A DNA stretch of 64,000 nucleotides, taken from NCBI GenBank assembly GCA_964036045.1, contig OZ038378.1, positions 12,586,001 to 12,650,000 of the forward strand. The letters are read 5' to 3'. The stretch comes from Eutreptiella sp. 'Long Island Sound 2002' (lineage: Eukaryota > Protista > Euglenida). Within the stretch, counting starts at the first letter, position 1; every line of letters starts with the position of its first letter. Below, in pieces: positions 4,668 to 63,555 of this stretch. A program made the position numbers and the translations under genes. Under the pieces are notes generated by a model. That model was given only the letters and a program-made list of their open reading frames with translations. It was not told where the DNA came from and made no database searches.

Positions 4668-4699
4668 TTTGCTTTTTTTTGCACTCCCTTTGTTAATTT

Positions 4700-5116
4700 T
4701 TATGTCAATCGGAAATACTCGTATAACTCATGCAGGATGTTTTTCGTGCTGTTGTTTGTGCTGCTGTTGGGCCAATTATCGAATACCATATGTGATAGAC
4801 CGAGACGTTCCTGTATGAATAACAGTATTTCAGGAAATTCTACGAGGCAGTACCGCAGAAACATACCCCTCCAATCGCGACAACCAAGTGGAACATATGG
4901 AAACTGCTGATGCAGCCACCTGCGCCATTTTGAGTAGAACTGAGCCCAGTGGCGTTTAGAACACTCCAAGCGTAGCATGTCCCCAGTGATGTACTCAATT
5001 GCCATTGGTTCAATCTCCCACTCAACAGGGTGTTCGTTGGTCACCACATATCGGCAGAACATAGAGCCTTGTGGTGTACAGAATGCGCGTAACAGTGCTT
5101 TTTGACGTGCCTGCAT
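4700..5116 (-). CDS. cargo hypothetical protein (MQARQK...)
   Basis: 3' part of chimeric ORF 4700-5644, lying inside the insertion; own ATG at 5116. Confidence 0.45.
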   Translation of the reverse strand: MQARQKALLRAFCTPQGSMFCRYVVTNEHPVEWEIEPMAIEYITGDMLRLECSKRHWAQFYSKWRRWLHQQFPYVPLGCRDWRGMFLRYCLVEFPEILLFIQERLGLSHMVFDNWPNSSTNNSTKNILHELYEYFRLT

Positions 5117-6956: not shown

Positions 6957-6968
6957 GGTAGCAAGAGG
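6956..6968 (+). promoter_or_regulatory. primer-binding site (tRNA-iMet-like)
   Basis: TGGTAGCAAGAGG immediately after the 5' LTR. Confidence 0.7.
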
Positions 6969-7054
6969 CAGCCTGTCTCTGTGCACCGGCAGCGACCCCG
7001 CGCCGTACAACCAGTGCTCCGAGCAGGCAAACATAAGCAGAAGGGTGGATTAAG

Positions 7055-16749: not shown

Positions 16750-16757
16750 AAGGGGGG
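16750..16757 (+). promoter_or_regulatory. polypurine tract
   Basis: AAGGGGGG abutting the 3' LTR. Confidence 0.8.
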
Positions 16758-17555
16758 AGTAAGAAAAAGTGCTTTTCCATTGCTTTAGGACATACTCTAG
16801 TTGTATTAGAGATGCACTGAGCAACCATGCATTTTTATCTTAGTATTGGTCCAGCCAAAAGTGGTGAGAACACATTTTGACCTATGGAACCAAACACTCA
16901 ATCAGGATATGGAGTGGACCCCTTAATCCCCTTTCAATCAGAAGTAAAACATCTTTTCCTGAGTTGACTGAGCACTGACATACCTAAGGTAGAGCCTATG
17001 AATTTATCTATGTTTTTCCATGAATACTTATCTGCCCTAGTGGTATGCACCCTAGGGGGTTAGGCACCTCTTTTTGAGAGGTCCTGGGTTCAATTCCTGG
17101 TCAGCCTAACTAAGTAGGAAGATCCCATGTGACATGGCAGTGACCTCATCGCCACATACCATGCCACCTCAGCACATATGGGACCCAAAACAAAGAGTGC
17201 ACATCTCCTAAGATGGCACTATGGAGAGAGAGTGATCCTGAGGCAGTTTTCTAACTCTTTTCCCAAAACATTTCAGCTATCTCTGTGAATATGCATTCAT
17301 TTGTATCCTGAGTTGCAGTTTCTGTGAATATCTAATCATCTTTCACTGTTTACACTGCAGCCCTTCATGCTTTGATCCTGAATTACCTTCTCCTTGCATA
17401 CTATTGGCTTGGGCTATCCTGGATTGAGTTGGCTTTACTGTATTTCAACAAACAAAAGCTTTTCATCATCCAAAACCAGCAGCAGGACACCCTACAGCAA
17501 CAACAAGCAGCAGGAGAAGCAAAAACACAGTGCTGAAAACTCTATAAACTTTTCT
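16758..17555 (+). repeat. 3' LTR (798 bp)
   Basis: Direct repeat of 6159-6956. Confidence 0.95.
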
Positions 17556-21284: not shown

Positions 21285-21358
21285 TTTTACGCTTTGCCTT
21301 AAGAACTTGGAACCAGAACCCAAACACACCTTTCAAATGCATGGAATATATCCGGAAG

Positions 21359-43658: not shown

Positions 43659-43924
43659 CGAATGAATTCAGTCTTCATAAATTCCAAATCGTACAAAATG
43701 CTTTCAATTGTGCGCCGTATAATTCTGATTGGATCAACGTTGCTTTTGTATTGTGTCGTGAAAATTAGGCCCTGCTTTTTTTCGTCACTGCAATAACCAA
43801 CAAAAAATCTTTCCTCGCATTTACTTAGTCGGTCGCGTAGCAGATTGCCGACTGTATGATTCTCGTTGAATATTTCCAAACACATCGTGTTGTCAGTATT
43901 TATGGTATACTGAATTTTGCTCAT
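43646..43924 (-). CDS. RPB11: RNA polymerase subunit RPB11/RpoL-like
   Basis: NENHTVGNLLR...FVGY. Confidence 0.8.
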   Translation of the reverse strand: MSKIQYTINTDNTMCLEIFNENHTVGNLLRDRLSKCEERFFVGYCSDEKKQGLIFTTQYKSNVDPIRIIRRTIESILYDLEFMKTEFIRHLN

Positions 43925-45420
43925 AGTACAGGGAATCCAACGGAACCAGAAGAATACCTGAGAATGGAGATTGATGAAGCAGTGATAATTATATCAAACT
44001 TGGCCGGTATGGTGTGATATTGGCTATCGTATACCTCAACATCAGTTTTTGCTGGTGCCGCCTGATTTTTTGCAACCTCACTTGCCTCAATATTCAGATT
44101 GACGCTTGCAAGACGAGCAAAGTTTGTTGATCCATCAGGCTGGACACTGTCAAGGCGATTCGCATATGAAATCATATGGTAACCTGTGTCTTCTGGTATG
44201 CGAACAGCGGAGTACCAGGGTGCAACCATTGTGAAGTAGTCCGAAGACATGTTCACACGGTCCACGTTTTCGTATGTCAATATGGCACGCGCTATCAGAC
44301 TTGCAATGCCAACTGGATTGAAAGTTCTTTGATGATTAGTACCGTTAGTACCAACTCCCCTTGTTGTGTGTGTGGAGTAGTTAGACCATTCACTGCGAAT
44401 TGTTGTATTACGCATTGCGAAAAATATTGCGCGAATGGAATGGGCAAATCGTAGATCAATCCCTCTTCTGTCCTGGGTGGTTGGGTTGAAACTTGTGGGT
44501 GGTATGGTTTGAACCTGTGTTATAACAGTGTCGATTTCGTTTTCCTCTCCAGTTTTTTCGCGGTCACCATTGGGTATCACAGCGTAGTGTGCCCAGACCT
44601 GTGGATTTTTGAGACTGAGGGGACCGGATGAAAGATCCAGTGCAGTATGCTGTTGTCCTTGCTGACTTATTTCTGCAGGTGTCACTGTAGCAGGTTGGCC
44701 ATCGGGTATTTGGGTATTGACTTTGTCAATTATTAGCAAATCCTCCCATTGTCTAAACTTTATTGTTAATCTGACATCATTGAAAGGACATGCTGCCTGG
44801 ATGATTGCGTCTGATGGCTCATGTGTGAAATAGAAGGGGAGGGGTATATTTAGGACTGTTCTTGGAAGTACCAATGACCGACCACTAGGCACACCATCAT
44901 CTGCATCAGGAGCAAGCAGTGCACCTGTTTCATGATACTCATAGTATGGGTTCACCAGCTTTGGTATGTTTCCAATCATGTTTTCGTATCCGTTTACCTT
45001 ACCAGCTGGTGTCATGAAAGCAGCTAAAAAGTCCATGTGGTATGAGGTCAATTTGTTTACCATCAAATCGTTGAAATGCAAGTAGGCTTCCTCTATCAAA
45101 TTATGGCCAATATTTCGTGTCCACCGTGCTTGGAAGCCCGGTTTGCATTTGACTTCGGGCAATTCAACTCGCAACCAGACATCTCTGATGTAGTCACCTG
45201 CACGCGAAAACATTGCTTGCATTTCAATTCCGAAATCCCCTGTTGTGCCACATCTGTTCAATTGTGCAGCAATCACAGTGAACCAGGCTGACTTTCTGAT
45301 GACCTTTCTGAATTTATTCACTGATTTACCACCATACAACCAACACTCAATTTCGTCATATGTGCTCAAATCTATGAATGCTGTGGTGAGGGATACTGTT
45401 GCCGTTGATCCGATGGTCTT
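43921..45420 (-). CDS. MCP: NCLDV double jelly-roll major capsid protein, iridovirus-like (expected start codon reads AAG)
   Basis: AFIDLSTYDEIE..YGG, KSAWFT, SRAGDY, RWTRNIGHNL, MIGN, PLPFYF, DLRFAHS, TGYHMISY, GSTNFARL, GSVGFPVL. Confidence 0.96.
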   Translation of the reverse strand, partial: KTIGSTATVSLTTAFIDLSTYDEIECWLYGGKSVNKFRKVIRKSAWFTVIAAQLNRCGTTGDFGIEMQAMFSRAGDYIRDVWLRVELPEVKCKPGFQARWTRNIGHNLIEEAYLHFNDLMVNKLTSYHMDFLAAFMTPAGKVNGYENMIGNIPKLVNPYYEYHETGALLAPDADDGVPSGRSLVLPRTVLNIPLPFYFTHEPSDAIIQAACPFNDVRLTIKFRQWEDLLIIDKVNTQIPDGQPATVTPAEISQQGQQHTALDLSSGPLSLKNPQVWAHYAVIPNGDREKTGEENEIDTVITQVQTIPPTSFNPTTQDRRGIDLRFAHSIRAIFFAMRNTTIRSEWSNYSTHTTRGVGTNGTNHQRTFNPVGIASLIARAILTYENVDRVNMSSDYFTMVAPWYSAVRIPEDTGYHMISYANRLDSVQPDGSTNFARLASVNLNIEASEVAKNQAAPAKTDVEVYDSQYHTIPAKFDIIITASSISILRYSSGSVGFPVL

Positions 45421-45500: not shown

Positions 45501-45834
45501 ATGACGGACACCTGCAATCACAAAGTGGCTTTGGACATGATGCCAAAATCTATGTCAAGACAAAAAACAGGAAAGAGGTCCGAAGAACCATCCCCCAAGC
45601 AACCCGTGCCACTACAGATGCCGAATTCCCATGGTATACAGGCATTGGATATGAATGTACTCAGAGGTTCAAATAGGGTTGGAATCATCGGACTTCCGGG
45701 TATGGGAAAAAGCAGCCCATGCAGGACGCTGTTACGGCATTTGTATTCTTCCTTTCCAGTGGTTTGTGTGTGCTCAGGTTCTGAATCCGAAAATCCATTT
45801 TACAGCAAATTTGTCCCAAGGTTATACATCCATA
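45501..45834 (+). pseudogene. A32: A32-type genome packaging ATPase, 5' segment
   Basis: IIGLPGMGKS (Walker A), SGSESENPFY...PRLYIH ending at the duplicated site. Confidence 0.85.
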
Positions 45835-45926
45835 GTGGACACCCTGCCACAGACACATTCGGTACGATTGATCCTTTTGATTTTTTTTTTTGTGTGTGTC
45901 AGATTGCACTTATAAATACAGAAAAA

Positions 45927-48011
45927 ATGTCCAGTATTTTATTTGTTCAATCGTCGGATTTAGGGAGTGGATGCAATCCATGCCGAAATATAAAAATGGA
46001 TTGGCGTGGAGTTGTAACCCTTCATATGCGACACAAGAACATGAACATCAACGTCGACATTGTTTGTAAAAAATTGTTCCAACAGGCGATTGACCTTCCT
46101 GTGCTGCAAAAGAAGAAGTCAGGACTTAGTGGTCAGTATGACAGAATCATTTTACATAAGTGCCAGGATGCCACAATGGAGAAACTGCTCTGGCTTCTGA
46201 CTCCGGATGCTCCTGTAGTGATTATGATTGGGAAGAGAGATGTGACCATACCCGAGAATATGGCCTCACATTATCTCGATGGTTACAATTACATCTTTCC
46301 AAAGGAATATTCGAGTCATTGCGCAGTTACCTCTGAACTCAGCAAAATTGCAATTGGGCTGTTAAGGGAGGATGAGGAAGAAGGATCTAAATCCAGCCCA
46401 AAAACAAATCAATTGCGGAATCGGGACACACATTCCTTCCTTTCATGGGTGCATGATAGCAGCACAAAAGATCAATAATTGCACAATCAAGAACAGGAAC
46501 AATTGACAAATACAATTATATCCAATCTGGCGACGGAGCCAAACAGGCGGTCAGGCAGTGAAGAAGGGGCTGAATCAGGTGGATCTGATTCAATTCACCT
46601 CGATGCAGTACCTGATTTTGTATCAAAAAATGGTGACATCAATGAAAAAACTCATAATATTTCATCTATCGGCTCTTCATCGAAGAGGTATGCAGGCTTG
46701 CGAGACATACTGGAAACATCCAGAAAAGTTAGCGCAGCATCGGGTAGCCGAAGTATTCAGCAAAACATTCGAGACAAATCGGCTTCACAACAAAATATCC
46801 CGAAGGGGCGGTCAGGGAGTGAAGAAGGGGCTAAATCAGGCGGATCTGATTCAATCCACCTCAATCAATCCGATGCAGTATCTGATTTTGCATCAAAAAA
46901 TGTTGACAGCTCATCTCAGATGTATAGAGAATTGAGTATCGCCAACAGCTCGTCGCCGGCTTCACAACAAAATATTCAGAATGAGCCAAACGGGCGGTCA
47001 GGCGGAGAAGAAGGGACTGAATCAGGTGGATCTGATTCAATCCACCTCGATCAATCCAATGCATCCGTTCCATCTATGGGCAATTTATCTCAGAGGTTAG
47101 GGGCCAACATGCCGGAAACATCGAGAACAGTTAGCGCAGCATCGGGTAGCGGAAATATTCAGCAAAACACATTGAGAAAAATTAACGTCTCCAACAGCTC
47201 GTCGCCGGCTTCACAACAAAATATCCGGAATGAGCCAAACGGGCGGTCAGGCAGTGACAACCCCGAGCAGGCTGGATCTGATTCAATCCACCTCAATGGA
47301 TTTGCATTAGAAAATCGTGACAACAATGGAACCCTTATATCCATGAACAATTCATCTCAGAGGCATATGGGCTCGGCCGACATGCTGAATGCAGTATTGA
47401 ATAGCGGCAATATGCAGCAAAACAGATTGAGACAAATTGCCACTTCACAACAAAATATCCAGAATGAGCCAAACGGCAGTGAAGCCGACCCGAATTCTTC
47501 GAACCACCCCAATCGATTCATGGATTTCGCATTGGAAGACATCAATGAAAAATTTCGAGACCCCCTTCCATTTATCGGCAATTCATTCGACGACGTATCC
47601 AGGAAGCTTAGCGCAGCATCGGGTGGCGCGAAAAATTCACCTATGTTCATCGGCAAAAGACCGTCATCAGAGCTGAACGGGTGGCCATCAGACCGTATAT
47701 ACCCAGACCATCAATTAATTAATGTCGTCTCCAGGGGGGGGCATGAATCAAGTCAATCAAACGCAGTATTTCGAGGAAATGGCGACAACGATGGAGGAAT
47801 CGAATACGATCCTCCTTTAAAGCGATCCAGGACAGATTCTCCAATTTCTATGCAAGGAACCACAACTCCCATTCAAAGCCAAACGGACGGCTCTTCACAA
47901 CATTGGAACAGAATGGAACCAACCGCGGCATCGTCTGACGTAGAGGAGCGGGTGGATTTATTAGCACGTAATTACATTACAGATTACAGAAATAACAAAT
48001 CATATTTTTAA
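45927..48011 (+). pseudogene. cargo protein: degenerate helicase-like N-terminus plus Ser/Asn/Gln-rich repeats; in-frame TAA at 46476-46478
   Basis: YDRIILHKCQD...IMIG; SQQNI..EPNGRSG..GSDSIHL repeated 4-5 times. Confidence 0.5.
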
Positions 48012-48133
48012 GTGGCCACGGCAATGAGGATCACCATACCCAGAAGGCCATGAGTTGGACTTACAATTGCCAATCTCAGGGGACAAAGTACGTTCAGCCA
48101 CAATACAAACAAAAGAGACATACATTCACTATG

Positions 48134-48235
48134 CTATGAGGAAATCTCTGAGTCTTCGAAGGGGTAAGGCCTCTGTATGATCTTAGAAACCAATTGCCAT
48201 TGCTCTTCGTCCTTTTTAAATCTCTGTTCAGGCAC
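48134..48235 (-). pseudogene. relic 3' end of a second type A recombinase
   Basis: Translates KKDEEQWQLVSKIIQRPYPFEDSEISS*, versus KKDDAVKEQWRSVFKLIQKPYPFEDSEMSS in the adjacent gene. Confidence 0.8.
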
Positions 48236-48253
48236 AATACACACAAACATTTA

Positions 48254-49894
48254 CTATGCTCGCAATGAGGACATCTCTGAGTCTTCGAAGGGGTAAGGCT
48301 TTTGTATGAGCTTAAAAACTGATCGCCATTGCTCTTTGACAGCGTCGTCCTTTTTTGGATCTCCGCTCAGCACCCCGTATATAGCATCATTAAGTGTATC
48401 TGCACTGATCTTGCCATAAATTCCACTTGTTATGGCCTGACTGGAATGACCAATCCACTTTGAAATGGTCTCAAAACTAAGACCACCACCGAGATAGAGC
48501 ATCTGAACAACCGTGTGCCGAAAGGCATGCGGATGTGCCCTGAATCCAGAGGCATGTATTCCACAGCGATCAAAGATGCTGGCACAGACCCGGTATATCG
48601 TCTTAGTTGACACATGGCCATCCCTGTCACCGGGGAAAAGAAAGTATGATTTATAATGCTTTTGTTGGTTGATATACCTGGAGATCAGAATACGCAATGC
48701 ATCGTTCACGTAGACCGTTCTTTTTTTGCCGTTCTTTTCGGTAGTAAAAAGCTTCATGGGAATGCGATTGGGTACCACAGGTCCGTCAATGATTTGTCCA
48801 AATGAGAGCCTCGAAATCCCTCCTATACGCAACCCTGTTATCAAGAAAGTGATTACAACAACCCTTTCGATTGCCGAAATGGATGCTGCAATTAGTAATT
48901 TGACCTGATCACTGCTGAACGCTGTCACTGAGCTCTCTGCGTCGGCCTCCCACGCCGTACACATCTTTTGTCGTAGACATTGCATTCTTGTTTGCAATTC
49001 CTCTCTCTCCTGGTATGCTGCATCGTCGCCTGAACGCATGGACGACGATGCAGAACTTATATAGTCATCAACACTGCAATGAGATGTGGAGCGATGGCGG
49101 CCTGGTAGCGGAAATCGGGCCCTTCTTGTCGGTCCCAGATTACTGTACTGCATGCTGACATATCGAACTTGAAGCCTGAAATATGCCAGTGAAATTTTTC
49201 GGGAGTTCTGATCAAACATGGACTCCAACCTGTCCATCCAATCGGTCGCACTCAGCTTTGCTAGATGGGCCAGACACTCCCTTGTTCCTTGTTGTAGCAT
49301 CTCAATCCGTAGTAGTGGCTCTTTATCAAAAAGCAGATGGTATATGAAACCCAGCATTTGTCTGCAATGTGAAACCGACACTGAGGACATTTTGGGGATG
49401 AGATGCCTACCAATGTGTGACAATAGACGGTACTCTACCCGATCAGGTGCTTGTCTGATTCTCAGGGGCAGCACATCTTCCAGTTTAGCAACTCTCGACA
49501 CTGCTGACCGCTCACAGACCCATTGGTGTCTGCTGTGCCCTTTGCTCCGCCTCATGTTGGGGTTGATGATGCAGGCAATCTGAGGATTCAGCAATGTCAT
49601 AGCTCTGCAGATTGAGACCCTGACATGACACCTGTGCTTTGCGGACCAATTTGCCGACATTTTTGACCAAACCTCCTGTGCCTTGCTCAGCGAATTCCTG
49701 TCAATGGCCTGCTGGATATTTGACAGTTGGGGGTTGCTGTTTTTGTTGAAGCGTGTAGCAAAATGATATAGGTACGCCAATGAGCTCTCTGCTTTCGAGT
49801 TGGACACAGAATTGCGTATAGTGTTGCGAATTTTCCTGTAGTCTTCCAGAGTTTCATCTGTGATTTGGGACCAATTAACATGAAGCAGTCGCAT
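48254..49894 (-). CDS. large tyrosine recombinase, type A
   Basis: ITGLR, EKNG, HPHAFRH, WIGH, SGIYG. Confidence 0.9.
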   Translation of the reverse strand: MRLLHVNWSQITDETLEDYRKIRNTIRNSVSNSKAESSLAYLYHFATRFNKNSNPQLSNIQQAIDRNSLSKAQEVWSKMSANWSAKHRCHVRVSICRAMTLLNPQIACIINPNMRRSKGHSRHQWVCERSAVSRVAKLEDVLPLRIRQAPDRVEYRLLSHIGRHLIPKMSSVSVSHCRQMLGFIYHLLFDKEPLLRIEMLQQGTRECLAHLAKLSATDWMDRLESMFDQNSRKISLAYFRLQVRYVSMQYSNLGPTRRARFPLPGRHRSTSHCSVDDYISSASSSMRSGDDAAYQEREELQTRMQCLRQKMCTAWEADAESSVTAFSSDQVKLLIAASISAIERVVVITFLITGLRIGGISRLSFGQIIDGPVVPNRIPMKLFTTEKNGKKRTVYVNDALRILISRYINQQKHYKSYFLFPGDRDGHVSTKTIYRVCASIFDRCGIHASGFRAHPHAFRHTVVQMLYLGGGLSFETISKWIGHSSQAITSGIYGKISADTLNDAIYGVLSGDPKKDDAVKEQWRSVFKLIQKPYPFEDSEMSSLRA

Positions 49895-49905
49895 GGCTCA
49901 TCTTC

Positions 49906-51816
49906 TTAGTCAAAAGGGAGTGCCGGCCACTTATCAGAACTATTGACACTTTGTGTCTCTGGCTGATGCTCTTGGTGATTGTTCTTCAGTTGAAGCCTCA
50001 GTTGTTGGTTCTCATCTCGCAGCCTTTGTATCTCCTGCTCTCTTGGGTCATCATTGACTGGGCCGAACAGCCTCATTGCGACATCTGGTGCATTAGTGAA
50101 ATAATGCGAATATGTTGTAGCTGGGCTTTTGTGGCCTAGGTACTTGGATATTGTTTCAAGTGGTATTCCCTGTTCAATGGATATATTTACAAGAAAAGCC
50201 CTGAACATGTGAATATGGATATTCTTTCTGGACGTTGGTAGGTTTGAGCGTCCGACAATTTTACTGAAATGCCACGCAGGGCAAATTGGTCTGCCGTTCC
50301 GGGTGAAAAGAGGGTCCATGGCATTCAAAACCCCATTCCGGTTTCGTATCTCTGTGACGTATTCGATCAGGTGTCTTTCGATTTCAGGTGAAATGGTAAC
50401 TACTCTGCGTTTCGACCATTTTTCGAGTAGATGGGCCGTTTTCCTTGGAAGGTTTGATGTACAATCCCACACTTCGCCCAGTAGAATGCATCTGAGGGCA
50501 TTTTTTCTGAGTCCCCAAAATTTGAGCATGCAGACCAGGAGCCGTTCCCGAGGATGTATACAAGCAGCCTCGATGAGTTCTACCTCAGCAATCGTCAGTG
50601 GATCCTTAGGCCTATGGGATACCACTGGTATGGCCGTAGAAAGTGCCGTAGCGTTGAGGAAAAATTGATGATTCAGTTCCTGCCAAACCTCAGCCATTGT
50701 CATTCTGGGAAATGGTGCTGTGGTGAACCATTCATGGTCAATCAAATAGTTGTACATGTTGACAACGTGCTGTCTTGTTGGCAATGAACGCTTGTTTTGG
50801 TCCGATGCATATTGCACTGCCTCCCTTGTTGTGGCATTGAGGACACCCAGTGTCACGGCCACGGCTCGCAGCACAGCGGCACGATGCAGTGTTCGGTCAA
50901 TCAGTTCATGCAAAGTGCAGTCACGTGCAGATGTCACTTTTTGCAAGATTGAGACAAACCACACAGCCCTAAGGCAGAAGGATCGTATACTACGTTTTTT
51001 GGCTATTGCGTCACCGAAATCCCTGTACTTCGATTTTACGAATCTGGTGACCAGCTCAACAATCAAGGACATGTCATTCAATGCCTCAATCTTCTGCACA
51101 CAACGTGCCACACAAATGTCCAAATGATACAATGGGGGGAAACAATCGAGAAATGTTTTTGGGACGTATTGTGTGTGTGTCACGAAACATCCCGTAGGAT
51201 CCATCATAGGGTGTGTCTTTATTTGCCGGATAAGGAACACAAGGGGTGCTCTGCCTGACTTTTTGACACGCGTACAGGACTCAACACCCTGCTGGACTTG
51301 TTGTATGTCCCATGCTTTCAGTGTTTCCAGGTCCTGGAAATTGTGATACGAGACAAAGTAGATCAGATTGAGTATTGTGGTTGCATCGAGGCGTAGTTTT
51401 GGAATTCTGATGAGCGTCTGTAGCAGCACGCGATGGCCCTGTGTGGTGGCGTGACTTGTTATTTTCTTTGAGGCATTTTCTACTGTGAGTCGGATGTTGT
51501 TGTCTTTCCATTTTTCGCGGCATGTGTTTCTCATATGCCTCCCTCTTGCAGAGGCAAACCTGTATCTCTTCCTACGATCCAGTCGCTCGCCGCGAGTTGT
51601 GAGTATGCAATGCAAAGTACGGTGATGTCTAGAAACGGTGTCATAATACTCGTAGATTTCATCAATCGGACTCGAAAGAAAGTCCCCTGCTGTATTGTAT
51701 GGTCCCTCGATTACAAATCTACGCAACTCTGTATAAATTCGGCCACCACAAACGGCGTTGTTGTATAGGAGTAACTGTAATAATTCCTCATGATCAACAG
51801 AAAGTGGACCAGCCAT
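49906..51816 (-). CDS. large tyrosine recombinase, type B
   Basis: WGLR, EKWS, HIHMFR, YLGH, TYSHY. Confidence 0.9.
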   Translation of the reverse strand: MAGPLSVDHEELLQLLLYNNAVCGGRIYTELRRFVIEGPYNTAGDFLSSPIDEIYEYYDTVSRHHRTLHCILTTRGERLDRRKRYRFASARGRHMRNTCREKWKDNNIRLTVENASKKITSHATTQGHRVLLQTLIRIPKLRLDATTILNLIYFVSYHNFQDLETLKAWDIQQVQQGVESCTRVKKSGRAPLVFLIRQIKTHPMMDPTGCFVTHTQYVPKTFLDCFPPLYHLDICVARCVQKIEALNDMSLIVELVTRFVKSKYRDFGDAIAKKRSIRSFCLRAVWFVSILQKVTSARDCTLHELIDRTLHRAAVLRAVAVTLGVLNATTREAVQYASDQNKRSLPTRQHVVNMYNYLIDHEWFTTAPFPRMTMAEVWQELNHQFFLNATALSTAIPVVSHRPKDPLTIAEVELIEAACIHPRERLLVCMLKFWGLRKNALRCILLGEVWDCTSNLPRKTAHLLEKWSKRRVVTISPEIERHLIEYVTEIRNRNGVLNAMDPLFTRNGRPICPAWHFSKIVGRSNLPTSRKNIHIHMFRAFLVNISIEQGIPLETISKYLGHKSPATTYSHYFTNAPDVAMRLFGPVNDDPREQEIQRLRDENQQLRLQLKNNHQEHQPETQSVNSSDKWPALPFD

Positions 51817-52165
51817 GTTTGTTTCGCGTATTACGGAGAATAGCCATCTACAACATCCATATCTGTTATTGGATGGTCGTTATTTGCATCATTGGGTTTT
51901 GCAGTGGTTTCCAGAAATACCAAATCACTGTTGTTGTTGACCTCAATCTTGCGCTTCTTTTTGTTCGTCTCCATCTGCATATGCAAAGCGCAGACAGTGT
52001 ATGCAGAGAGCATTTGTATATGACACACATGCACCGGGCGAATACCTCTGCAAGCTCCGATGTGAAGTCGAAAAAGTAGGTGACATTTTGCATGATCTGT
52101 GAAGTATACATGTATACATAAGGGTCTCTCAGCCGCGACCATGCAAAAGGAGATATTTCCATTTA

Positions 52166-54499
52166 ATGACATATGTGTATCACTGCACGTCCACCGGCAG
52201 AAACAAATTTGTGCATCCCAATACGGGCACTTTCGGTGGTGATAATAACACCTCTGTCGGATCTTTGGTCTATGATGAACCGAATGTCAATTCGAAGGCA
52301 TACATAGGGGCTGTTCTAAATGGCAACAAATTTCACTGTTCACTGTCTGCTTGGTTCGCGTTCTGCGCTCTCAAACCCATCGCCAATGGAAAATGGGAGT
52401 GGGAGATAAGTGACTCACTGTTACGTTCGCTGAATACATCACCGTCGGGTGCGGTATATGTTTCCATTTTCGACCCAATTTTGGGTCTTGTTCGGGATGT
52501 AGAGTTGGATATGCATCGGAGTACTGTTTTGTGTGCATATGCGAAATACCCGGGACGTGTCCGGACCACGCCTCCAGGTGGCACTGTTGTTGAGGGGCAC
52601 ATTCGTTTCAGACTGGCTGCCCAAACGCTGTATGGCACAGTCATGTGCGTTGATACCGATGTTATACAGATTGAGGTCAAATCTGAGGACAGCGAGGAAT
52701 TACTCCGGACATTGAGACAGATTGAAACTCTGGTTTACATAGGTGGCTCAACCCTCCGTAGTGGGAATAGGACGCGGGTGTATGCTGTAGATGAGGCTGA
52801 TCAAGACAATTTCGCGACGCAAGGTCTGCGCGGAGACACATTTGTTAATGGCAATTGGTATGTAACATCCCATTCTGCCAATCACTTTATCGCAATAACA
52901 TCTTCCCTACAGTCTACCTTGTCGAGCTACGAATATGACTGGCCCTTTCCGGTGTCATACGTGCAAGAGGGGTTGGTCATTGTGGCCGCCTTCGAGCAGA
53001 CAATACCCGCTATGCCCACACCTATGTTGCTGAATATAAGACAGATGCCTAATGTCACCATAGCCAAATCCTCAGTGGTACTACGCGATGGTAATAAATC
53101 AATTGACATTTTGGCCCGTGCCCCAGATACTGCATTACTGGTGCTGACGGATGATGCTGTTTTCCTGCGACCTCCTGGTCTTGTGGTGTCCACACTGATT
53201 CGTGCAACCGTACTGGAGTCACATAGCCACAAGACTGGCATGTATTTTCCGACTGCTAGGAGCATTGCATGTTTTGCCAAACCCGGATCCTATGAGTCTC
53301 TAGCGTTCATTATGGTACCCACTGTTTGGCCTGCTAATCCTAATGGCGCCAATGCTGTGACTGTGGGGGTGACTAGCATTGGTAATGGGCTTTATGAACA
53401 AGAATGGACATTCACAGGGCGGATGCTTCTGCACGCGCTGTCGTGGTCCATCAGCATTGAAAATGTTACCGTGGCCGATACAAGAATCAGTATCACGCTT
53501 TACGGAAAAAATGTACTGCAGTCTGCGTGGACCACCTTATACACATTGCGAGATTACACAGTAGGTTCGACTACAACATCACACACTGTTCAGTTTCGTG
53601 ACTCCCTTTTGCCCTATCACACCGGTGACCCTCTGCCCATTGGATCATTGTCGGCTGAACACCTGCTACAGATACTGACATCAATGCAGTACTATCGAGT
53701 ACGAATACAGACAATAGATTCGACAATGACACTGAATATATCGAAAGTTGTGCTGCGAACTACACCTGATATACACGCGGCTTCATTCATCAAGCCGCGT
53801 TTGTTGGGTTCTGCAGGTCTGACCGCTGGTATGAGGGTTATCCGGATCAAACTGTCTAAAAAGGTTCAGGGGGTGGAGATATGCCCCTGTGCAGTTGGGG
53901 CATTTTTGGAAATTTGGAAAGTGGATACCCCTGGGCCAATATGGGTAGACGCACTTGGTACATCTTGGACATCAGGTTCATTTGTAAATTATGGAAAGCG
54001 GAGTTTACTGGAGAATTGCTCCGTCTCGCTCACTTCGGTTACCCTGCCAAGAGATGTACCGTTATGTGGACGTGATACCACCGTGCAGTCATTTCCGTAC
54101 TTCTGGTGTTTTGTCAGACATCCATGTCTCAAACCTGTTCGCTCAGCGGTGTTCAGTCGTTTACGGAGGACTTCTCCCTCTGCAGTATTGCCTCGTTGGA
54201 TACAGGAATCAAATACATTATGTTTTCTTGTCGGTGTTTCATCAGCAAAGGTATCCAATGGAAACGCCTTTATTGAGTGTCATGGTGCCACTGTTGTGGA
54301 GGCCGAAATGACGGACATGATACAAGCAGGGATGCCCGAATTCTGTATGATTTCTGTGGATAATGAAGTGCTGAACTTTGTTCAATACGGAGACACACAA
54401 CGTGAGGTTGTTCCATTGGAGGCACCCGATGATATTTTGTCCGGCATAACCGCTACTTTGACAGTTACGGTACAATCTGGAAAACCGGGTCGCAATTGA
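52166..54499 (+). CDS. penton/minor-capsid-like protein (irido/marseillevirus type, by recollection)
   Basis: N-terminal STGRN..HP..G.F; C-terminal LTSVTLP...FPYFW...FIEC.G...P.EAPD...ITATL. Confidence 0.45.
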   Translation: MTYVYHCTSTGRNKFVHPNTGTFGGDNNTSVGSLVYDEPNVNSKAYIGAVLNGNKFHCSLSAWFAFCALKPIANGKWEWEISDSLLRSLNTSPSGAVYVSIFDPILGLVRDVELDMHRSTVLCAYAKYPGRVRTTPPGGTVVEGHIRFRLAAQTLYGTVMCVDTDVIQIEVKSEDSEELLRTLRQIETLVYIGGSTLRSGNRTRVYAVDEADQDNFATQGLRGDTFVNGNWYVTSHSANHFIAITSSLQSTLSSYEYDWPFPVSYVQEGLVIVAAFEQTIPAMPTPMLLNIRQMPNVTIAKSSVVLRDGNKSIDILARAPDTALLVLTDDAVFLRPPGLVVSTLIRATVLESHSHKTGMYFPTARSIACFAKPGSYESLAFIMVPTVWPANPNGANAVTVGVTSIGNGLYEQEWTFTGRMLLHALSWSISIENVTVADTRISITLYGKNVLQSAWTTLYTLRDYTVGSTTTSHTVQFRDSLLPYHTGDPLPIGSLSAEHLLQILTSMQYYRVRIQTIDSTMTLNISKVVLRTTPDIHAASFIKPRLLGSAGLTAGMRVIRIKLSKKVQGVEICPCAVGAFLEIWKVDTPGPIWVDALGTSWTSGSFVNYGKRSLLENCSVSLTSVTLPRDVPLCGRDTTVQSFPYFWCFVRHPCLKPVRSAVFSRLRRTSPSAVLPRWIQESNTLCFLVGVSSAKVSNGNAFIECHGATVVEAEMTDMIQAGMPEFCMISVDNEVLNFVQYGDTQREVVPLEAPDDILSGITATLTVTVQSGKPGRN

Positions 54500-54814
54500 G
54501 CAGATGGGCGTCTGAGGGGTATATCCCCTCTCCTCTCTGCTGCATTGATAATGACCGCGCAGCTTTGCGATTGAGTCGATGGTTGTGTGTTGCCGTCGCG
54601 CTCACGGTGGCGCTTCTCACGAAGAGCGGGTCGACGGTGCTTGCCACTCTGGCGTGCATCCCGGGCAAGCTCAAGTGCATACTCATAGTCGCGTATGATT
54701 GCCTGCTCCCTCATGCGTAGGATGCGGGGCCGCGTCATTGTCTGTGGCCGGAAACCCCAAACAGCAATGATATCTGAAAGGCAAAGCGTGTAATTTATAT
54801 ACATATATATATAA

Positions 54815-55558
54815 ATGGCACCTATTCGTGTGGGATGGTTCGATCGTGTCAACTTCAAAATTACCAATACCTTCGAACATGACAACAAGCGGGACAAACG
54901 ACGTCGGAAAAGGAATGAGGCAATTGCAATAAAATTATGTGCTCAGCTTGTGAAGGCTCTAGGCGGTATAGTTGAATACATCCACAACCATGAAATCTCA
55001 TACTTTGCTGATGGTGGTCATGATAAATCAATCCTTTTCTCGTTGTTTTTCGAAACAACCAAAGTAATGGTGATTCCTGACGGTATTGATGGGGTAAGGA
55101 GGCAACCTGACGGGCCTGGAGATGGTATATTGATCCGTTATCGTGCCCTTGGTGATACATTTCAATTAATGTTGGGTCGCCGCGGTCGAGTTATCAGTAT
55201 ACAGGACCTGGCAAAACGCTTGATGAGATTGAGCCTGGATGACACTGATTGGCTGATATTTGAGTCTCTGAATATACAATTTCATTTCCAAGCAAACAAC
55301 ATCGGTCGTTCCTACACCGACGATCATAGAACAGTTAGAGTTGAGAAGGGACTGGAGATGGAGTTGAAAAAGATTTTGTGTCTGATGTTACCAGCGGTAG
55401 ACAAGGTGGAGGTTGAAGTACACGCTGACATTTTGGATGTGTGGACAGCAGGTGAGAGTGGATACATTTGCCGTATAATGCTCAGAGACGAAGAACGACC
55501 AGCGTATCCTTTATGCAATACCGGATGGCCATACAAAGTCAGGTGGGTGCATTTGTAG
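54815..55558 (+). CDS. cargo hypothetical protein
   Basis: 247-aa ORF after a TATATA run. Confidence 0.6.
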   Translation: MAPIRVGWFDRVNFKITNTFEHDNKRDKRRRKRNEAIAIKLCAQLVKALGGIVEYIHNHEISYFADGGHDKSILFSLFFETTKVMVIPDGIDGVRRQPDGPGDGILIRYRALGDTFQLMLGRRGRVISIQDLAKRLMRLSLDDTDWLIFESLNIQFHFQANNIGRSYTDDHRTVRVEKGLEMELKKILCLMLPAVDKVEVEVHADILDVWTAGESGYICRIMLRDEERPAYPLCNTGWPYKVRWVHL

Positions 55559-55798
55559 TGGGACAAAACAAAGTGCAACGAACGGAAAAAATGTCTGGCA
55601 TCTTTTGTATCTACATCTTTCCGGTGTGGATTGTTTCTGGCCTCCTGAGCGAAAGGGCGAATATTGTCTGTGGATGGATGTCCACATACACCATTTCATG
55701 TAGCATGGTTCCATTTTGTCGACTTCGAAATTACCAATCTGGCTGACACACTTCAGTTGAATAATATGTGAAGATGTATACACATCTCTAAAAAAAGC

Positions 55799-56996
55799 AT
55801 GAATGTCGGTATCGTTGCATCAGCGCAATCTGCATACACACATACATCGCGCATAAAATTGCAAGGCGACGGAGATGACATTGTTGCTGTTGCACTGTCA
55901 GGGGGGGGCTGTTGCAGTGGCTTACGACGTTGAAGGGAGTTCACACCATGATCTACGCCTCATTATATATGATTCCTTCTCTGGAACGGAAAAATATTCA
56001 CACGAAATCGCAACCGACATTAACAAGAATGTAAAGTCCAATATTGCAATGGTCTTACTCACTGATGGGAAACCAATGGTGTTATTTTCCCAAGGACACA
56101 ACATTATGCGAAGTCGGGCCCTCGATGAGGAAGGTGAGCAATGGGAGGATCCGCAGATTATTTTTACACATCCAGTCAACCAGTGGATAACATCTCTTTC
56201 AAACATGGAACTCATTGACGGCAATCCAGCCATTGCATTTTCCCACGGCGGTGGCAATGTTTGGTACATCAGAGCCAGCGATCCAAAAGGTGACGCTTGG
56301 ACATATTATGTAACAACGGTCACCTATGGACGAGGTGATCAGGAGAAATTTTCGGAACACCTGCAGGATTACGCCTCCCTTGCAATTGTAAATGGAAACC
56401 CAGCGGTTTTGAAACAGCAGTGGGCACCAAACGGAAGTAAGGTTGGCGCAAGCTATGCACGGTCCCCCAATATAATTGGTGATAGTGCGTGGGGTCTCGA
56501 TAATCAAACAGCACAGATTAAAGATGACAGTGGTAACGATATAGTTTGCAGTGGGCAGACAAGAGGTTGGTTATTTTGGTGTCAAACAACACAACATCCC
56601 TACATTCTGAGGCCATCCAGAGGACTCTACTGTGGTCCAAATGCTAATGGAATCGGCTCAGGGAATTGGCATCTCATTCAGGACCTTAAACATGAGGGAA
56701 CTACTCCCTGTAACTATCCATGTGATGCGGTGTCTCTACTCAATGAGACACAGCTTTTGTACCCAGTGGTAAATTCGCACCGTGAACTTCAAATACGAAT
56801 GATAAGTATCACCGCACATGACAGTGTAAAGAAGAAACAGGTGAACCTGCCACCAATTACCGTATCTAGAATATTGGGCTCACTATGCGCAGTGATCATG
56901 CAAGAAGATATTGTGCTAGTGTTTGCGAGAGTACAAAATATTATTCACTTCATCAGGTATGATGCATCTGATGATGTCTCAGTAATTTCTATCTGA
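55799..56996 (+). pseudogene. MNVGIVASA-family protein with beta-propeller-like repeats; frameshift at G8 (55901-55908)
   Basis: ATG 55799 gives MNVGIVASA; repeats LTDGKPMV, LIDGNPAI, IVNGNPAV in ORF 55875-56996. Confidence 0.65.
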
Positions 56997-57178
56997 TGAC
57001 TGTCCTAACATTCGCATAATGATTAGGGTCTTGATCTGACTCGATTTGATCCCAACAAACGAGATGAGTCGCCCCTACTTTGACCTTTGCCCTGGAACTG
57101 GAAGAAGAATCACGAACGATTGTACATCCGATGGTACAAATGGTAGACAGGTGACACTTTGGATGACTGGACAGCAGT

Positions 57179-57478
57179 TCAGGCTGGATACACTTGCTGT
57201 ATAATGCTCAGAGATAACGAAGAACCGAATAACCGATCTGGCCATAAGAGCATATTAAGAACCGCAACGTAGTCCTGCTCTCGCACCCGCGAAATATCCA
57301 TGCATATTTGCAAAGAGAACACGCAGTTTTTTGTTTTTACTTTGTAGTTTTTCGTAATCAGGCGGTCAGCATCAGTAAGGATCATACACCAAACACCAGA
57401 CCTATTCACCGTTTTAATCACGTCTACAAACGCACCTCGGTAAAAGGTGACCCCTGTTTTGTCAACCATTTCCGCCAC
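57179..57478 (-). CDS. small hypothetical protein
   Basis: 99-aa ORF at the right end of the element. Confidence 0.35.
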   Translation of the reverse strand: MAEMVDKTGVTFYRGAFVDVIKTVNRSGVWCMILTDADRLITKNYKVKTKNCVFSLQICMDISRVREQDYVAVLNMLLWPDRLFGSSLSLSIIQQVYPA

Positions 57479-57584
57479 GCGTCAAATGACCTCTGCTTAG
57501 TAGGACGACATTGTAAAGTCATCTGTTTACAGGTCAATAAAGGTCTGTTAATAAGGTTGATATTGTCTGTGGCAGGGTGTCCAC

Positions 57585-57722
57585 TATACATCCATAACAA
57601 AGTCAACAAGCGGATTCTGAAACAATTCGTGAATAGACAAAAACTTGCAATTGCGGGTAATAGCAAACTTATTGATTCCCTGTTGATACTTGATGACTGC
57701 TTCGATCCTAGTTTCATATTCA
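57585..57722 (+). pseudogene. A32: A32 ATPase middle segment (Walker B), truncated again
   Basis: YIHNKVNKRILKQFVNRQKLA...LLILDDC; A32 similarity not evident after about 57722. Confidence 0.8.
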
Positions 57723-57778
57723 CCCGGTCTGGATTGTTTATTCCGCTGTGGATGGACAGCCTTTTTCTTGTGCTTTTT

Positions 57779-58317: not shown

Positions 58318-59058
58318 ATGAATGTGGGGATTGTAGCAAGTGCAGCAAGAAAAACCGGTGGTGATTCAGCCGCCACAATGCCGGTTACTGTGTCAAATGG
58401 CACGGATTATGTTTCCGCATACAGTCCCATAGGTGACCAGGTGACATACACACCCGTAAATGGACCCTCTGCAGCAATAATTTACAAAGCCCCTGGCAGT
58501 GGCCCTGCCTACATACACTGGCCCACCTTTGCTGTGCATCCGTTGCATTATGTCAATCCAGAAAAAAGCTTTTGGAATCGTACCCTTTATTTGGCAGTGG
58601 CATTTGAAATTAACGGTTGGCAAGAGCTTGTTGGACAGGGGTCGAATCCCGCACATGGTACAGATCCAGGTACCTATCGTTTGTTCGCCAATATTGGTGG
58701 CGCGGGCGCAAACAATATACCCATTTACTTCAGGTACCAGGTGACCTGCGAGCGTGACCTGTTGCTGGGTGGCAGCAGCTCAGTCTCAGCCAGTGTGTAC
58801 AACGGAGGCGGGATCCGAATTTTCACTGCATACATCGGTCCTGACACACAAAAATGTTTGATCAATGCGCAACACATAAAGGATTCGCCACGAACGGGTC
58901 TGTCACTGAGTGAATCCGCAATACTTTCACCCGTGCGAATAATGAACCAATTTAAGGGTAAGCTGTATGATATGCGTGTGTATGATGGTGAGCATACAGA
59001 CACTGAGGTGCAGACCACGTGCGAGGATATTGCACATGCGCTGGGCGTTACGCTCTAA
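58318..59058 (+). CDS. MNVGIVASA-family protein with LamG/ConA-like C-terminus
   Basis: MNVGIVASA start; FKGKLYDMRVYD..TDTEV. Confidence 0.65.
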   Translation: MNVGIVASAARKTGGDSAATMPVTVSNGTDYVSAYSPIGDQVTYTPVNGPSAAIIYKAPGSGPAYIHWPTFAVHPLHYVNPEKSFWNRTLYLAVAFEINGWQELVGQGSNPAHGTDPGTYRLFANIGGAGANNIPIYFRYQVTCERDLLLGGSSSVSASVYNGGGIRIFTAYIGPDTQKCLINAQHIKDSPRTGLSLSESAILSPVRIMNQFKGKLYDMRVYDGEHTDTEVQTTCEDIAHALGVTL

Positions 59059-59215: not shown

Positions 59216-60040
59216 TCACTCGAATCCCCATTTTGCTCTTAACATATCGATTTCATTCGTAACATGCTGTGATGTCATGCCATTAGGTATATCATATATT
59301 CGAATTTCGTGGTATCTCATCCCTCTTTTCGGATCCCTCAAGCCCAATGAGTTCAGAAAGTGTGCATTATCGTACCATTGAGAAGCTGCTGTAGTAGCTG
59401 CAATAGCCAATTCTTGTTGATGGCCACGTGATGATGCCCATGTATATATGTCCATATTATCAGTACCACTACTACTGGAATTGCATACAAGTGCATACAC
59501 CAATTTATCGTCCTGTTGCATTAATTGTGTCCCTAACCTGGTCGTTCGATATTGCAAACGAATTCCGTAAGCCGGGTGAGGCGTTGTGAAACAGTATAAA
59601 TCTGGATTATATGCTGCTGTGTCTTCTTTATTTGCCGTCAGCCAATCACCCCCACTCTCTTGTGTATGTTGGCCAACCAAAATTATCATTTTACCGCGTA
59701 CAACTAGACTTGCTTCAGTTTCACCCACTGTTGCCATGCCATAGAGCGTGTGGTTCATCTGTAAATATGGGTAACCATTATTACTAAAATAGAGCACTCT
59801 ACCATTCTGGTCTATTGTTCTGGTCCCTTTTAGACATACTTGCCAAATGCAATTTTCTTCTGTACCTGATGGGGCTTTAATCGGTTTCCACCTTACTATA
59901 TCCTCGTGGTCTTCACTTCCAGTCACAGTGGTTCCATCATTTCTAATAATCGAACCTGATTCTCGAGAATCCCATATGTGAGTTACATATGTACTCAATC
60001 TCACCACTGCACCTGCACTTGCCACAATCCCTATGTTCAT
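59216..60040 (-). CDS. MNIGIVASA-family protein with LamG/ConA-like C-terminus
   Basis: MNIGIVASA start; YHEIRIYD...LRAKWG. Confidence 0.65.
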   Translation of the reverse strand: MNIGIVASAGAVVRLSTYVTHIWDSRESGSIIRNDGTTVTGSEDHEDIVRWKPIKAPSGTEENCIWQVCLKGTRTIDQNGRVLYFSNNGYPYLQMNHTLYGMATVGETEASLVVRGKMIILVGQHTQESGGDWLTANKEDTAAYNPDLYCFTTPHPAYGIRLQYRTTRLGTQLMQQDDKLVYALVCNSSSSGTDNMDIYTWASSRGHQQELAIAATTAASQWYDNAHFLNSLGLRDPKRGMRYHEIRIYDIPNGMTSQHVTNEIDMLRAKWGFE

Positions 60041-60906: not shown

Positions 60907-62490
60907 TCATAGACCATATGGTTTGTCGATCATTCGTGCAATATCAAGCCATTTCTTGTGTGTTTTAGTGTCATCACTGATGAATGGTACACCTTGTATG
61001 CTAGCCGTTATGTCTTCCTGTCTAAGTTTGCCATATACGGTACATGTTGTGGTTGCGCTGCTATGGCCCACCCATTTCGCAATGGATTCCCATTTACATC
61101 CACATACCCACATGAGATGGATAAGGGTATGTCTGAATGAATGGGGATGCCCCTGGACCTGTGCCCTGTCCAAAATCCTTTTTATTTTTTTCCACATACA
61201 TGCTGTACTGGTATGTTCATGTGTCTTCAAGGTATGTGTCTTACGACCTGGAAACACATAATCACTATGTACAGACCGACAGGAATCGAGCCACCCAGCG
61301 AGCAAGATACGACATGATGCAGTCAAATGTACGACACGTTTCAGACCGTTCTTCTCTGTGGTGCATAGTGTTGTTGGCGTGGTTATCGGTCTGTTTCGCA
61401 GACCAGGGTAATAAAGGCGACAGAGTCCACCAATACGCAACCCAGTTGTTAGAAGCAGGATGACTATGAACTGTGAGAGGGGTTCACCTGTGCATGCATC
61501 AATAATGCACTTTATCTCTTCTGGTGTGAATGCTGTTTTGGAATGTGCATTCCTGCTGTGGCACAGCTGACACTGAAGTCTTGATACATGTGATCTGAAT
61601 TGTAACTCATCTCTACAGTCTGTTTTCTGTACCAAAATATGGTGCAACGTCTGAATATGTAATACATGCTTTTCGAATACTGCATTTCTGATTTGCTTCG
61701 ATTCATAAAGCTGTTCATATACATTGAGCCAATCTGCTATGGACATCTTCGATATTCTGAGCCATAGCTGGTCCGAAGACAATGTGCATAACTCGGGCAG
61801 CTTAGTAAATACTTTGTAATAGAAACAAGTCATACGGCATACATGCTGGCGAGTTGGATTGTGCCTGCAAACACCGAATATGTATTCATATGCAATCCGT
61901 GATAAGGATGAATAAACAGCATTATCCTTTTGTAACATGCGCACACAACCTGGTAGACAAATGTGTATTGCAAAAGGTTTGTTGTTTTGTGACCTGTCTG
62001 CGCGCACAATTGTTGTGCCCTCCTTGTATTTGTAGCTTTCAGGAATGTGCATTGGGTTCATTGCATGTGCAACATCGGGAGAGTACATACTCGTAATGGT
62101 GCATATGCCCCGCCGCGCCACATCTTGGTATGTGCGCGAATAAACACAATCCTCGCAACTCCTCATCCACACATCCCGCACTGTGGAAAGGGCACCCTTG
62201 TCATCTTTCAGGCCCAGTAAGAATGCTGGGTCGTCAATATCCAGTGCCCCGTTTTTGATTTTCCTGTTGCATTCTGCATTGAACCTGTTTACGAATGTGA
62301 AGAATACTGCAAGGAATGTATTCGCCCGGGATGCTGGTAGGTTGAATTTGTTGATAAGTTCTGTATGTATGTGCTTGTATATCGCAGTATATCTACACTT
62401 TCTCCACTTTGACGGTGCGGGCATCGTAATTAAAATGCATATATCTCTATAGGGCTTACATATATTTGAGTAATGAGTGAAGGGGTGCAA
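60907..62490 (-). CDS. large tyrosine recombinase, type A (likely start 62424)
   Basis: TTGLR, EKNG, HPHSFRH, WVGH, CTVYG. Confidence 0.9.
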   Translation of the reverse strand: MHPFTHYSNICKPYRDICILITMPAPSKWRKCRYTAIYKHIHTELINKFNLPASRANTFLAVFFTFVNRFNAECNRKIKNGALDIDDPAFLLGLKDDKGALSTVRDVWMRSCEDCVYSRTYQDVARRGICTITSMYSPDVAHAMNPMHIPESYKYKEGTTIVRADRSQNNKPFAIHICLPGCVRMLQKDNAVYSSLSRIAYEYIFGVCRHNPTRQHVCRMTCFYYKVFTKLPELCTLSSDQLWLRISKMSIADWLNVYEQLYESKQIRNAVFEKHVLHIQTLHHILVQKTDCRDELQFRSHVSRLQCQLCHSRNAHSKTAFTPEEIKCIIDACTGEPLSQFIVILLLTTGLRIGGLCRLYYPGLRNRPITTPTTLCTTEKNGLKRVVHLTASCRILLAGWLDSCRSVHSDYVFPGRKTHTLKTHEHTSTACMWKKIKRILDRAQVQGHPHSFRHTLIHLMWVCGCKWESIAKWVGHSSATTTCTVYGKLRQEDITASIQGVPFISDDTKTHKKWLDIARMIDKPYGL

Positions 62491-63555
62491 AGAATAATGT
62501 CATGCAAGGAGAGGCGTACGCTGAGTGGCAATTGGGCACAAACCACAAAAGATATTGAAGCCTTCGTAAAGAGTACAGCATATAACCACGACGAGAACTC
62601 GGTTGATGAACTTTACGATAAATTTGAAAGCTTTATTACAGGGCTTGGTCGGGAAATTACTGGGTGGCGCAGTCGTAATGTGATCAAATGCTTAGCCTTG
62701 GCTAGGGGCATAGATGCCGATTGTGTGAAGGAGCGCATTCGCCCCATACTGTATAAGCGTCGCATGCAGCTGGACGGTCAACTGCACATCCGGGACATAG
62801 TTAGATATGTCAGTGGTCGGAGGACACTGTCCGGACAGGCCCAAATGGATACGGATACAGCAAAATGTGTAATGAGGGTCCTGCAGACATTATCGACCCA
62901 AACATTCCAGACATCACAAATTGCAGCATTTGCCTGCTTCGCTTTATTTGTGCAACGTCAGCACCAGCAAACAATTTATCAATGGCTTGAAAAGTGTATT
63001 GATCGTGTGGAGGTGGAGCGAGCTTCAATGTGGCGTGGTAGTGGCAATGATTCCAAACTATTAGTGTCTCTCCTTGACACACTCCAACGACAACCAGCCT
63101 TTGACAAAAGTGGCCAGTATGCCAGCCACCTTCATGCAGTGTCATATGAATTCATGTCCGAATATAGCAGTCTGTGGCGGTACCCCAAAGGTCTTGCCAT
63201 AGCGTTGCAAAAATATTGCAAAACAAAAAATGAGCGGTTGTATGTGTTGAATATGGCAGAGAGCCTGACAATTGGGCGAGCACATGAACATTCCGATCGC
63301 CTTCTGCAGCGCATTCGACGGAGTGTTGCCATCCCGCTGTCCCAGCTGCTGTACCATCTCCAGCAGTCTTGTATGAGTATCACTGAATCATTGCCAATAA
63401 CAGTCGAGTATGATCAGGTCACTGAGCTGATTGCCACCATCACTGCCAGGGCATACAAAGTCTGCCGTATCCGTTGTACTGTTCTACAGGCAAGGCCAGG
63501 GTGCTTACTGGACCGCTGGCTTGGGTTTTTTAGTAGCGGTATTGGTATCACATGA
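62473..63555 (+). pseudogene. N-terminal part of a type B recombinase lacking the catalytic domain
   Basis: FDKSGQYASHLHAV...SLWRYP...AHEH matches FDPHAYFQSHLCQV...LLWRFP...AHER in ORF 760. Confidence 0.6.

Follow-up and report, generated by a model that had tools for sequence, protein, structure and literature searches.

The 64-kb window analysed here (64,000 nucleotides of contig OZ038378.1 from Eutreptiella sp. 'Long Island Sound 2002') carries an insert of 11.76 kb, bounded by short direct repeats, inside a giant-virus A32 genome-packaging gene, and this insert probably belongs to a family of integrative elements that insert site-specifically at conserved codons in the core genes of giant viruses, and whose predicted excision as circles would permit expression of the interrupted gene. 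The first-pass annotation of this DNA had proposed a giant-virus integrative element in a core gene, mobilized by tyrosine recombinases, and the proposal is strengthened by the comparison with other viruses reported below. No description of such elements was found in a literature search that covered few subscription papers and no supplements, and they apparently make up a widespread and as yet undescribed class of mobile DNA in the genomes of giant viruses. Their presence points to programmed DNA rearrangement as a possible gate on essential giant-virus genes, and it would explain split VLTF3, helicase, protease and A32 markers in assemblies, which are perhaps mistaken for errors or decay. The family is also a source of numerous natural recombinase pairs, each with a short defined target, that are probably functional in eukaryotic cells.

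The insert in the packaging ATPase gene

The two recombinase genes of the insert, referred to as type A and type B (Table 1), lie in tandem 11 bp apart, as the first-pass annotation had recognized, and both products match PF00589 and retain the complete R-K-H-R-H-Y set of catalytic residues of the tyrosine recombinase superfamily. The predicted structure of type A, with a mean predicted local distance difference test score (pLDDT) of 57, resembles XerA, Cre and XerH, and the predicted structure of type B is confident (pLDDT 86). Among the open reading frames (ORFs) of the element, no match to a transposase was found in Pfam, PHROGs or NCBIfam, in agreement with the earlier statement that a DDE transposase is not recognizable, and the same databases gave no match to a polymerase or to the capsid, packaging ATPase and replication enzyme that mark Polinton-like viruses and virophages. 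The neighbouring ORFs have no family match to a TnpC, Tfp/Srap or GinC/GinD-like accessory protein, profiles of these proteins themselves not having been run, and a search of the ESM Atlas returned only generic integrase and reverse-transcriptase clusters. The cargo gene at 55800 belongs to a small gene family with a common N-terminal motif, which is also represented at 58318–59058 and 59216–60040; its copies are diverged, show many loose ends in the runs and have no family match.

The perfect 23-bp inverted arms that had been reported at the ends of the insert are confirmed, and the window contains exactly two copies of the arm (0 expected by chance), with no further copy at up to three mismatches in the 64 kb and no exact match in the viral and metagenome contig collections scanned. 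The 8-bp core is duplicated at both flanks, at 45825–45832 and 57587–57594, as had been claimed; its length is less certain, because the same two bases border both core copies and the direct repeat extends to 12 bp, and the boundary between arm and core is therefore ambiguous (23 + 8, 22 + 10 or 21 + 12). The element junction site, with 23/23 inverted arms flanking the 8-bp core, has the architecture of loxP and FRT. The empty target site, which had also been described as symmetric, is symmetric for only 4 bp on either side of the core, with identity between its two flanks at 6 of 13 positions overall, and the target arms have only the two leading bases in common with the element arm. The site pair is therefore not loxP-like, contrary to the first-pass annotation: loxP and FRT combine the same arms on both partners with a single enzyme, whereas two enzymes are encoded here, and the long inverted arms are not family-wide, since those of the sister elements described below agree at only 7–17 of 23 positions. 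Within the viral core region (19,589 positions), TA symmetry at both core borders is found at 53 positions and the 4-bp symmetry at 90, and because such border symmetry is rare the A32 target site is probably not random.

A relic right end is present inside the element, where an arm that matches at 18 of 21 positions, compared with a best of 17 in 300 shuffles, is followed by a core-like 9-mer that is equalled at 0.6% of window positions. This 14%-diverged internal arm with its core-like sequence gives a weak hint that core and element moved together, weak because a repeated gene start also explains part of the match. In the module containing the relic end (54653–55734), contigs of runs X1, X3 and X4 jump back by 1082 bases, which represents either a tandem duplication or a small circle of this right-arm module.

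Focusing on the target gene, both A32 pieces align to the intact homolog P0032 (294 aa, with a weak Pox_A32 match), in keeping with the earlier reading of a gene split by the insert. The idea that the insert alone interrupts A32 did not survive: the homology ends at around 57706, about 120 bp past the insert, and P0032 residues 144–294, the last ∼150 codons, have no match anywhere in the 64-kb window, and the insert is therefore not the sole break in the gene. The second break near 57707 is spanned by contigs of runs X3, X6 and X9, and the DNA beyond it contains genes with the start motif of one cargo gene, followed by the recombinase pair at 60907–63555; a second element at Walker B, with its far end outside the window, is possible. 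Since the carrier is likely to be a decaying endogenous virus and A32 has this second break, the present copy probably documents the system and is not itself a functional switch. At 57620–57688, runs X3 and X4 contain a further A32 fragment, which is diverged and has unrelated DNA upstream of it, and this suggests another broken viral copy.

Table 1. Features of the insert, of its surroundings in the window and of split genes at sister loci in IMG/VR (L numbers)
Feature	Position or locus	Strand	Remarks
A32-like packaging ATPase, 5′ piece (Walker A)	45501–45836	+	P0032 residues 14–107, 49%
Left direct repeat, 12 bp	45823–45834	.	8-bp core 45825–45832
Left inverted arm, 23 bp	45833–45855	+	
Cargo, 183-aa ORF and repetitive 363-aa ORF	45927–48011	+	without family match
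Tyrosine recombinase type A, 546 aa	48254–49894	-	PF00589; R356, K387, H456, R459, H483, Y493
Tyrosine recombinase type B, 636 aa	49906–51816	-	PF00589; R437, K466, H536, R539, H562, Y572
Cargo, 777 aa	52166–54499	+	without family match
Cargo, 247 aa	54815–55558	+	pieces recur at 55689–55738 and 57152–57226
Relic right end	55665–55696	-	arm 18/21, then core-like 9-mer
Cargo, 373-aa ORF	55800–56996	+	out-of-frame start motif, also found in the 58318 and 59216 ORFs
Right inverted arm, 23 bp	57564–57586	-	
Right direct repeat, 12 bp	57585–57596	.	
A32 middle piece, up to Walker B	57587–57706	+	P0032 residues 103–143, 59%
Second A32 break	57707–57761	.	following DNA resembles the element's inner right-end region; candidate left end of another element
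Major capsid protein of nucleocytoplasmic large DNA viruses (NCLDV), adjoining the target gene	43921–45222	-	frame extends upstream; no ATG at expected start
Divergent recombinase pair	60907–63555	.	type A intact (-); type B (+) truncated before catalytic domain
Convergent recombinase pair, type A (+) and type B (-)	19533–23362	.	both intact; no ends above shuffled null
Type B recombinase near window start	769–2679	+	no partner inside window
Papain-like cysteine protease, catalytic Cys-Trp	L200–202		8-bp core
Papain-like cysteine protease, catalytic Cys-Trp	L203		7-bp core
Papain-like cysteine protease, catalytic Cys-Trp	L204–207		7-bp core, read on L205
VLTF3, Gln-Gly	L208		9-bp core
VLTF3, Gln-Gly	L209/210		11-bp core
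D6/D11-like helicase, His-Trp	L195		6-bp core

Related recombinases and split genes in other giant viruses

A profile built from the six full-length recombinases of the window retrieved 174 representatives at a threshold of E ≤ 1e-30, and the 150 listed mostly sort into types A and B. In a catalytic-domain tree of 44 rows, a chosen subset of ten A, ten B, eight each of the sister types A′ and B′ and eight phage or bacterial outgroup sequences, A, B, A′ and B′ are each monophyletic, and the eight phage or bacterial rows fall outside the 36 ingroup rows from the window and IMG/VR (support 99/97; 1.0 in another analysis). The two recombinases of the insert thus belong to a large recombinase clade of giant viruses. 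Word-based homolog searches retrieved only near-identical copies and one relative; viral-contig scans with the window type A protein or the capsid protein found no relative, a scan with a four-sequence alignment found generic phage integrases only, and a GTDB scan gave six weak bacterial loci.

An A′ alignment searched against IMG/VR gave 16 full-length loci (L195–L210, the best of 78 matches) from ten lineages, with a convergent B′ partner at 14 of the 16 and the other two stopping at a contig edge. In six of the ten lineages, both halves of a split core gene surround the pair together with a duplicated core, the core repeats being 6–11 bp long and situated at conserved codons of the target genes (Table 1). 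One gene half is visible in three more lineages (L196, L199 and L198, the other half of the last apparently being on L161 from the same bin), and in L197 no split-gene half is visible. In all three protease lineages the core contains the same seven bases at a single codon pair, across viruses of 31–44% GC. The helicase and VLTF3 assignments are putative and draw partly on characteristic motifs, the Pfam match to VLTF3 being weak.

The sister elements are 6.2–10.7 kb in length and their cargo is unrelated. Their ends were located via the split genes, a search for symmetric arms having missed most of them, and their inverted arms agree at 16–17 of 23 positions in L200 and L202 and at 7–12 of 23 in L203, L205, L208 and L195; given these weak arms, what characterizes the family is the core rather than the arm. 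The order of the paired genes varies between tandem, convergent and divergent, and the two genes are adjacent in L199, L204–207 and L208. The elements that target the helicase group together in both the A′ and the B′ trees, as do those that target VLTF3, which shows, at the level of the trees, stable pairing and target fidelity but not proven co-evolution, because relatedness alone can give the same grouping.

The same comparisons bear on the explanation that the insert is a non-autonomous DDE transposon, hAT- or Mutator-like, that generated an 8–12-bp target duplication and captured viral DNA including the recombinase pair. Perfect inverted ends with a flanking repeat fit DDE elements, and the other recombinase loci of the window are without such ends. 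However, the arm has no matches in the viral and metagenome collections, the element ends are single-copy and unbranched in Logan contigs, and the diverged internal arm is again followed by a core-like sequence, while the sister elements have cores of 6–11 bp, three of their lineages use a single core at the same codon pair, and most of them are without inverted ends. The hAT alternative, which the first-pass annotation had itself raised, is thus disfavoured; a DDE origin is largely refuted at the level of the family and is very improbable for this insert. Membership of hAT or Mutator was rejected on the lack of a transposase and of a many-copy pattern in the contigs and collections scanned; arm-only copies may exist elsewhere in the genome.

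Several sister loci show further features. Fanzor/TnpB-like genes, recognized by eye, are inserted directly next to recombinase genes at L081:1928–3889, L082:3347–5293 and L199:11386–12588, the last of which hides the element end in L199. The protease adjoining the recombinase pair in L199 (5233–7368) has a weak intein-splicing match, and two parasites may share this gene. The A′ recombinase at L200:9551–11473 has an N-terminal extension that is GIY-YIG-like by eye, its only Pfam match being PF00589. The cargo between the pair at L196:4388–7268 comprises a primase-polymerase and a D5-like helicase, which suggests that some family members may self-replicate. Outside the element, L209 carries a ∼730-bp inverted repeat (76%) of repeat-protein genes at 4357–5087 and 20302–21025.

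Inheritance, excision and rival explanations

A mechanism may be proposed from the chemistry of tyrosine recombinases and by analogy with Tn554 and SEs, in which both enzymes are needed. The two enzymes would act together as TnpA/TnpB or IntA/IntB do, and each pair would be specific to the ends of its own element and to a single target gene. The circle would integrate into an empty allele by strand exchange across the 6–11-bp core in common with the target, and in the reverse reaction the pair would join the ends across the core and release the circle, in some genome copies during infection.

The inheritance of a split gene can be followed in the protease loci L203 and L205, between which synonymous differences are 0.69 in the 3′ protease half, 0.69 and 0.71 in the recombinases, 0.73–0.75 in three flanking genes and 0.86 in the 5′ protease half. 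Neither protease half contains stops, dN/dS (nonsynonymous over synonymous change) is about 0.07 in the 3′ half, a value that is approximate near saturation, and conservation extends to the codons of the 3′ half that lie between the core and the first ATG. These data fit an element that would have been inherited with the virus while the split protease stayed in use. The explanation that the insertions are purely selfish and gene-killing, hitting the same site independently and recently in each lineage so that the constraint predates insertion, draws on the decayed appearance of the window virus (the second A32 break, the capsid gene without a start, the truncated recombinase and the LTR element) and on the ability of site-specific enzymes to strike one site repeatedly. 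Against it stand the roughly equal divergence of recombinases and flanking genes in L203 and L205, as co-inheritance predicts, and the recurrence of occupied sites across separate metagenomes (L200, L201 and L202; L204–207; L209 and L210), and we regard it as improbable.

Excision itself was sought in contigs. The left element end is represented in four runs by unbranched contigs, with no joint that skips the element, and at the right end, where X3 and X4 each have two variants, one with a changed arm base and both with the same core and flank, the contigs of four runs show no loose end corresponding to a circle or an empty site. The circle junction and the empty site, which the first-pass annotation had put forward for searching, are both absent from the Logan contigs of six runs, contigs being prone to drop rare forms. 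A second explanation takes this at face value: the pair mobilizes the element without clean excision, by copy-out as in bacterial SEs, and the gene is rescued by RNA, by an intact copy or by a co-infecting virus. SEs have two tyrosine recombinases and imperfect inverted repeats of 13–19 bp and leave no empty site (PMC10214605), and intact protease paralogs in L203 and L205 could provide rescue. Rescue by another copy would not, however, hold the split halves under constraint, nothing in these DNA data points to RNA joining across 6–11 kb in which genes occupy both strands, and an identical core on both sides is the trace of a reversible recombination. We consider copy-out with rescue unlikely, and reversible, site-specific integration with excision remains our preferred interpretation.

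Several observations weigh against that interpretation. The intact protease paralog is present in both L203 and L205, and independent insertion at one site in these two viruses is possible; L200 and L202 show weaker constraint (dN/dS about 0.3, from few changes). Besides the contig searches described above, an empty site with the L200 flanks was not found in IMG/VR, where the ten matches comprised three of the same locus, all occupied, and seven unrelated sequences. The ten lineages are not fully independent, as L196 and L197 come from one bin and L161, L198, L199 and L208 from another. The split-gene examples come from the sister types A′ and B′, the branching order among A, B, A′ and B′ being left open by the tree, and the sister pairs are convergent whereas the window pair is tandem. 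For the window's own A and B clades there is a single split-gene case, and the three other recombinase loci of the window have neither ends above shuffled nulls nor a split gene, in a test with ORFs of the IMG/VR loci as queries that was insensitive, only one other gene having matched.

A broader proposal, which we offer tentatively and rate at somewhat below even, is that giant viruses harbour 'DNA introns', two-recombinase elements stably resident in essential genes that have to be excised in each productive infection, with the virus dependent on them. If true, such elements in the packaging ATPase, late transcription factor, early-factor helicase and virion protease would let the virus control late gene expression or latency through a recombination switch.

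Known systems and genomic setting

Giant-virus inteins and introns have a site preference for conserved genes, and the recombinases of the bacterial elements skin and SPbeta are of the serine type. The elements skin in sigK and SPbeta in spsM lie inside bacterial genes (PMC5025042, PMC4191935); as in the insert, a site-specific element interrupts a coding gene with collinear halves and a common core, and excision, which is predicted for the insert, reconstitutes the gene. They differ in being bacterial and in using one recombinase with a directionality factor, whereas two tyrosine recombinases are encoded here, in eukaryotic giant viruses. The Tn554 family, SEs, GInts and RIT have in common with the insert two intact tyrosine recombinases, a cargo of several kilobases and few selected targets (PMC10214605, PMC3414803), SEs also having short inverted ends (PMC10214605), and in Tn554 and SEs both recombinases are required (PMC10214605, PMC3414803). 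In contrast to these, the insert has recombinases of a separate clade, an identical core on both sides and conserved viral core-gene codons as targets, and no TnpC, Tfp or Srap-like partner was identified by family matches.

Among eukaryotic DNA elements, Cryptons (PMC3212892) and Starships also have a tyrosine recombinase, short terminal direct repeats and proposed circles. Cryptons have one recombinase, 4–6-bp repeats and no inverted ends, and no gene-specific targeting is described in the available part of the source (PMC3212892); membership of Cryptons was rejected on the two recombinases, 8–12-bp repeat and 23-bp inverted ends of the insert. Phaeovirus integrases are likewise giant-virus tyrosine recombinases, with short attP/attB homology, inverted repeats around the core and circles shown by reads, but there the entire virus is inserted into the host at CC by a single enzyme, whereas the pair described here would move a 6–12-kb unit within viral genes (PMC13236599). 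Inteins and self-splicing introns of giant viruses are also parasites of conserved viral genes whose removal is needed for function (10.1101/299784); they are removed from RNA or protein, whereas removal from DNA would apply here, together with a multi-gene cargo. On the features compared, the insert would work like skin and SPbeta and is built like Tn554 and SEs, and it apparently belongs to none of these groups, nor to Cryptons or phaeovirus integrases.

The neighbours of the split A32 gene are NCLDV core genes, encoding the capsid protein and RNA polymerase subunits. The solved structures closest to the window capsid are 7yjl and 6ojn, which we take to be those of a marseillevirus and an iridovirus, and on account of these relatives an affiliation with Pimascovirales is suggested. 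The element proteins that were looked up and the flanking genes recur on contigs of equal size (1.31 Mb, 605 kb and mostly also 312 kb). The carrier is probably an endogenous, decaying virus, as suggested by the long terminal repeat (LTR) retrotransposon, the capsid gene without a start, the truncated recombinase and the 1.3-Mb source contig. The retrotransposon, at 6159–17555, is Ty3/gypsy-like with a chromodomain and has 798-bp LTRs of 99.7% identity, with ends that are apparently AG...CT rather than TG...CA and a 5-bp target duplication.

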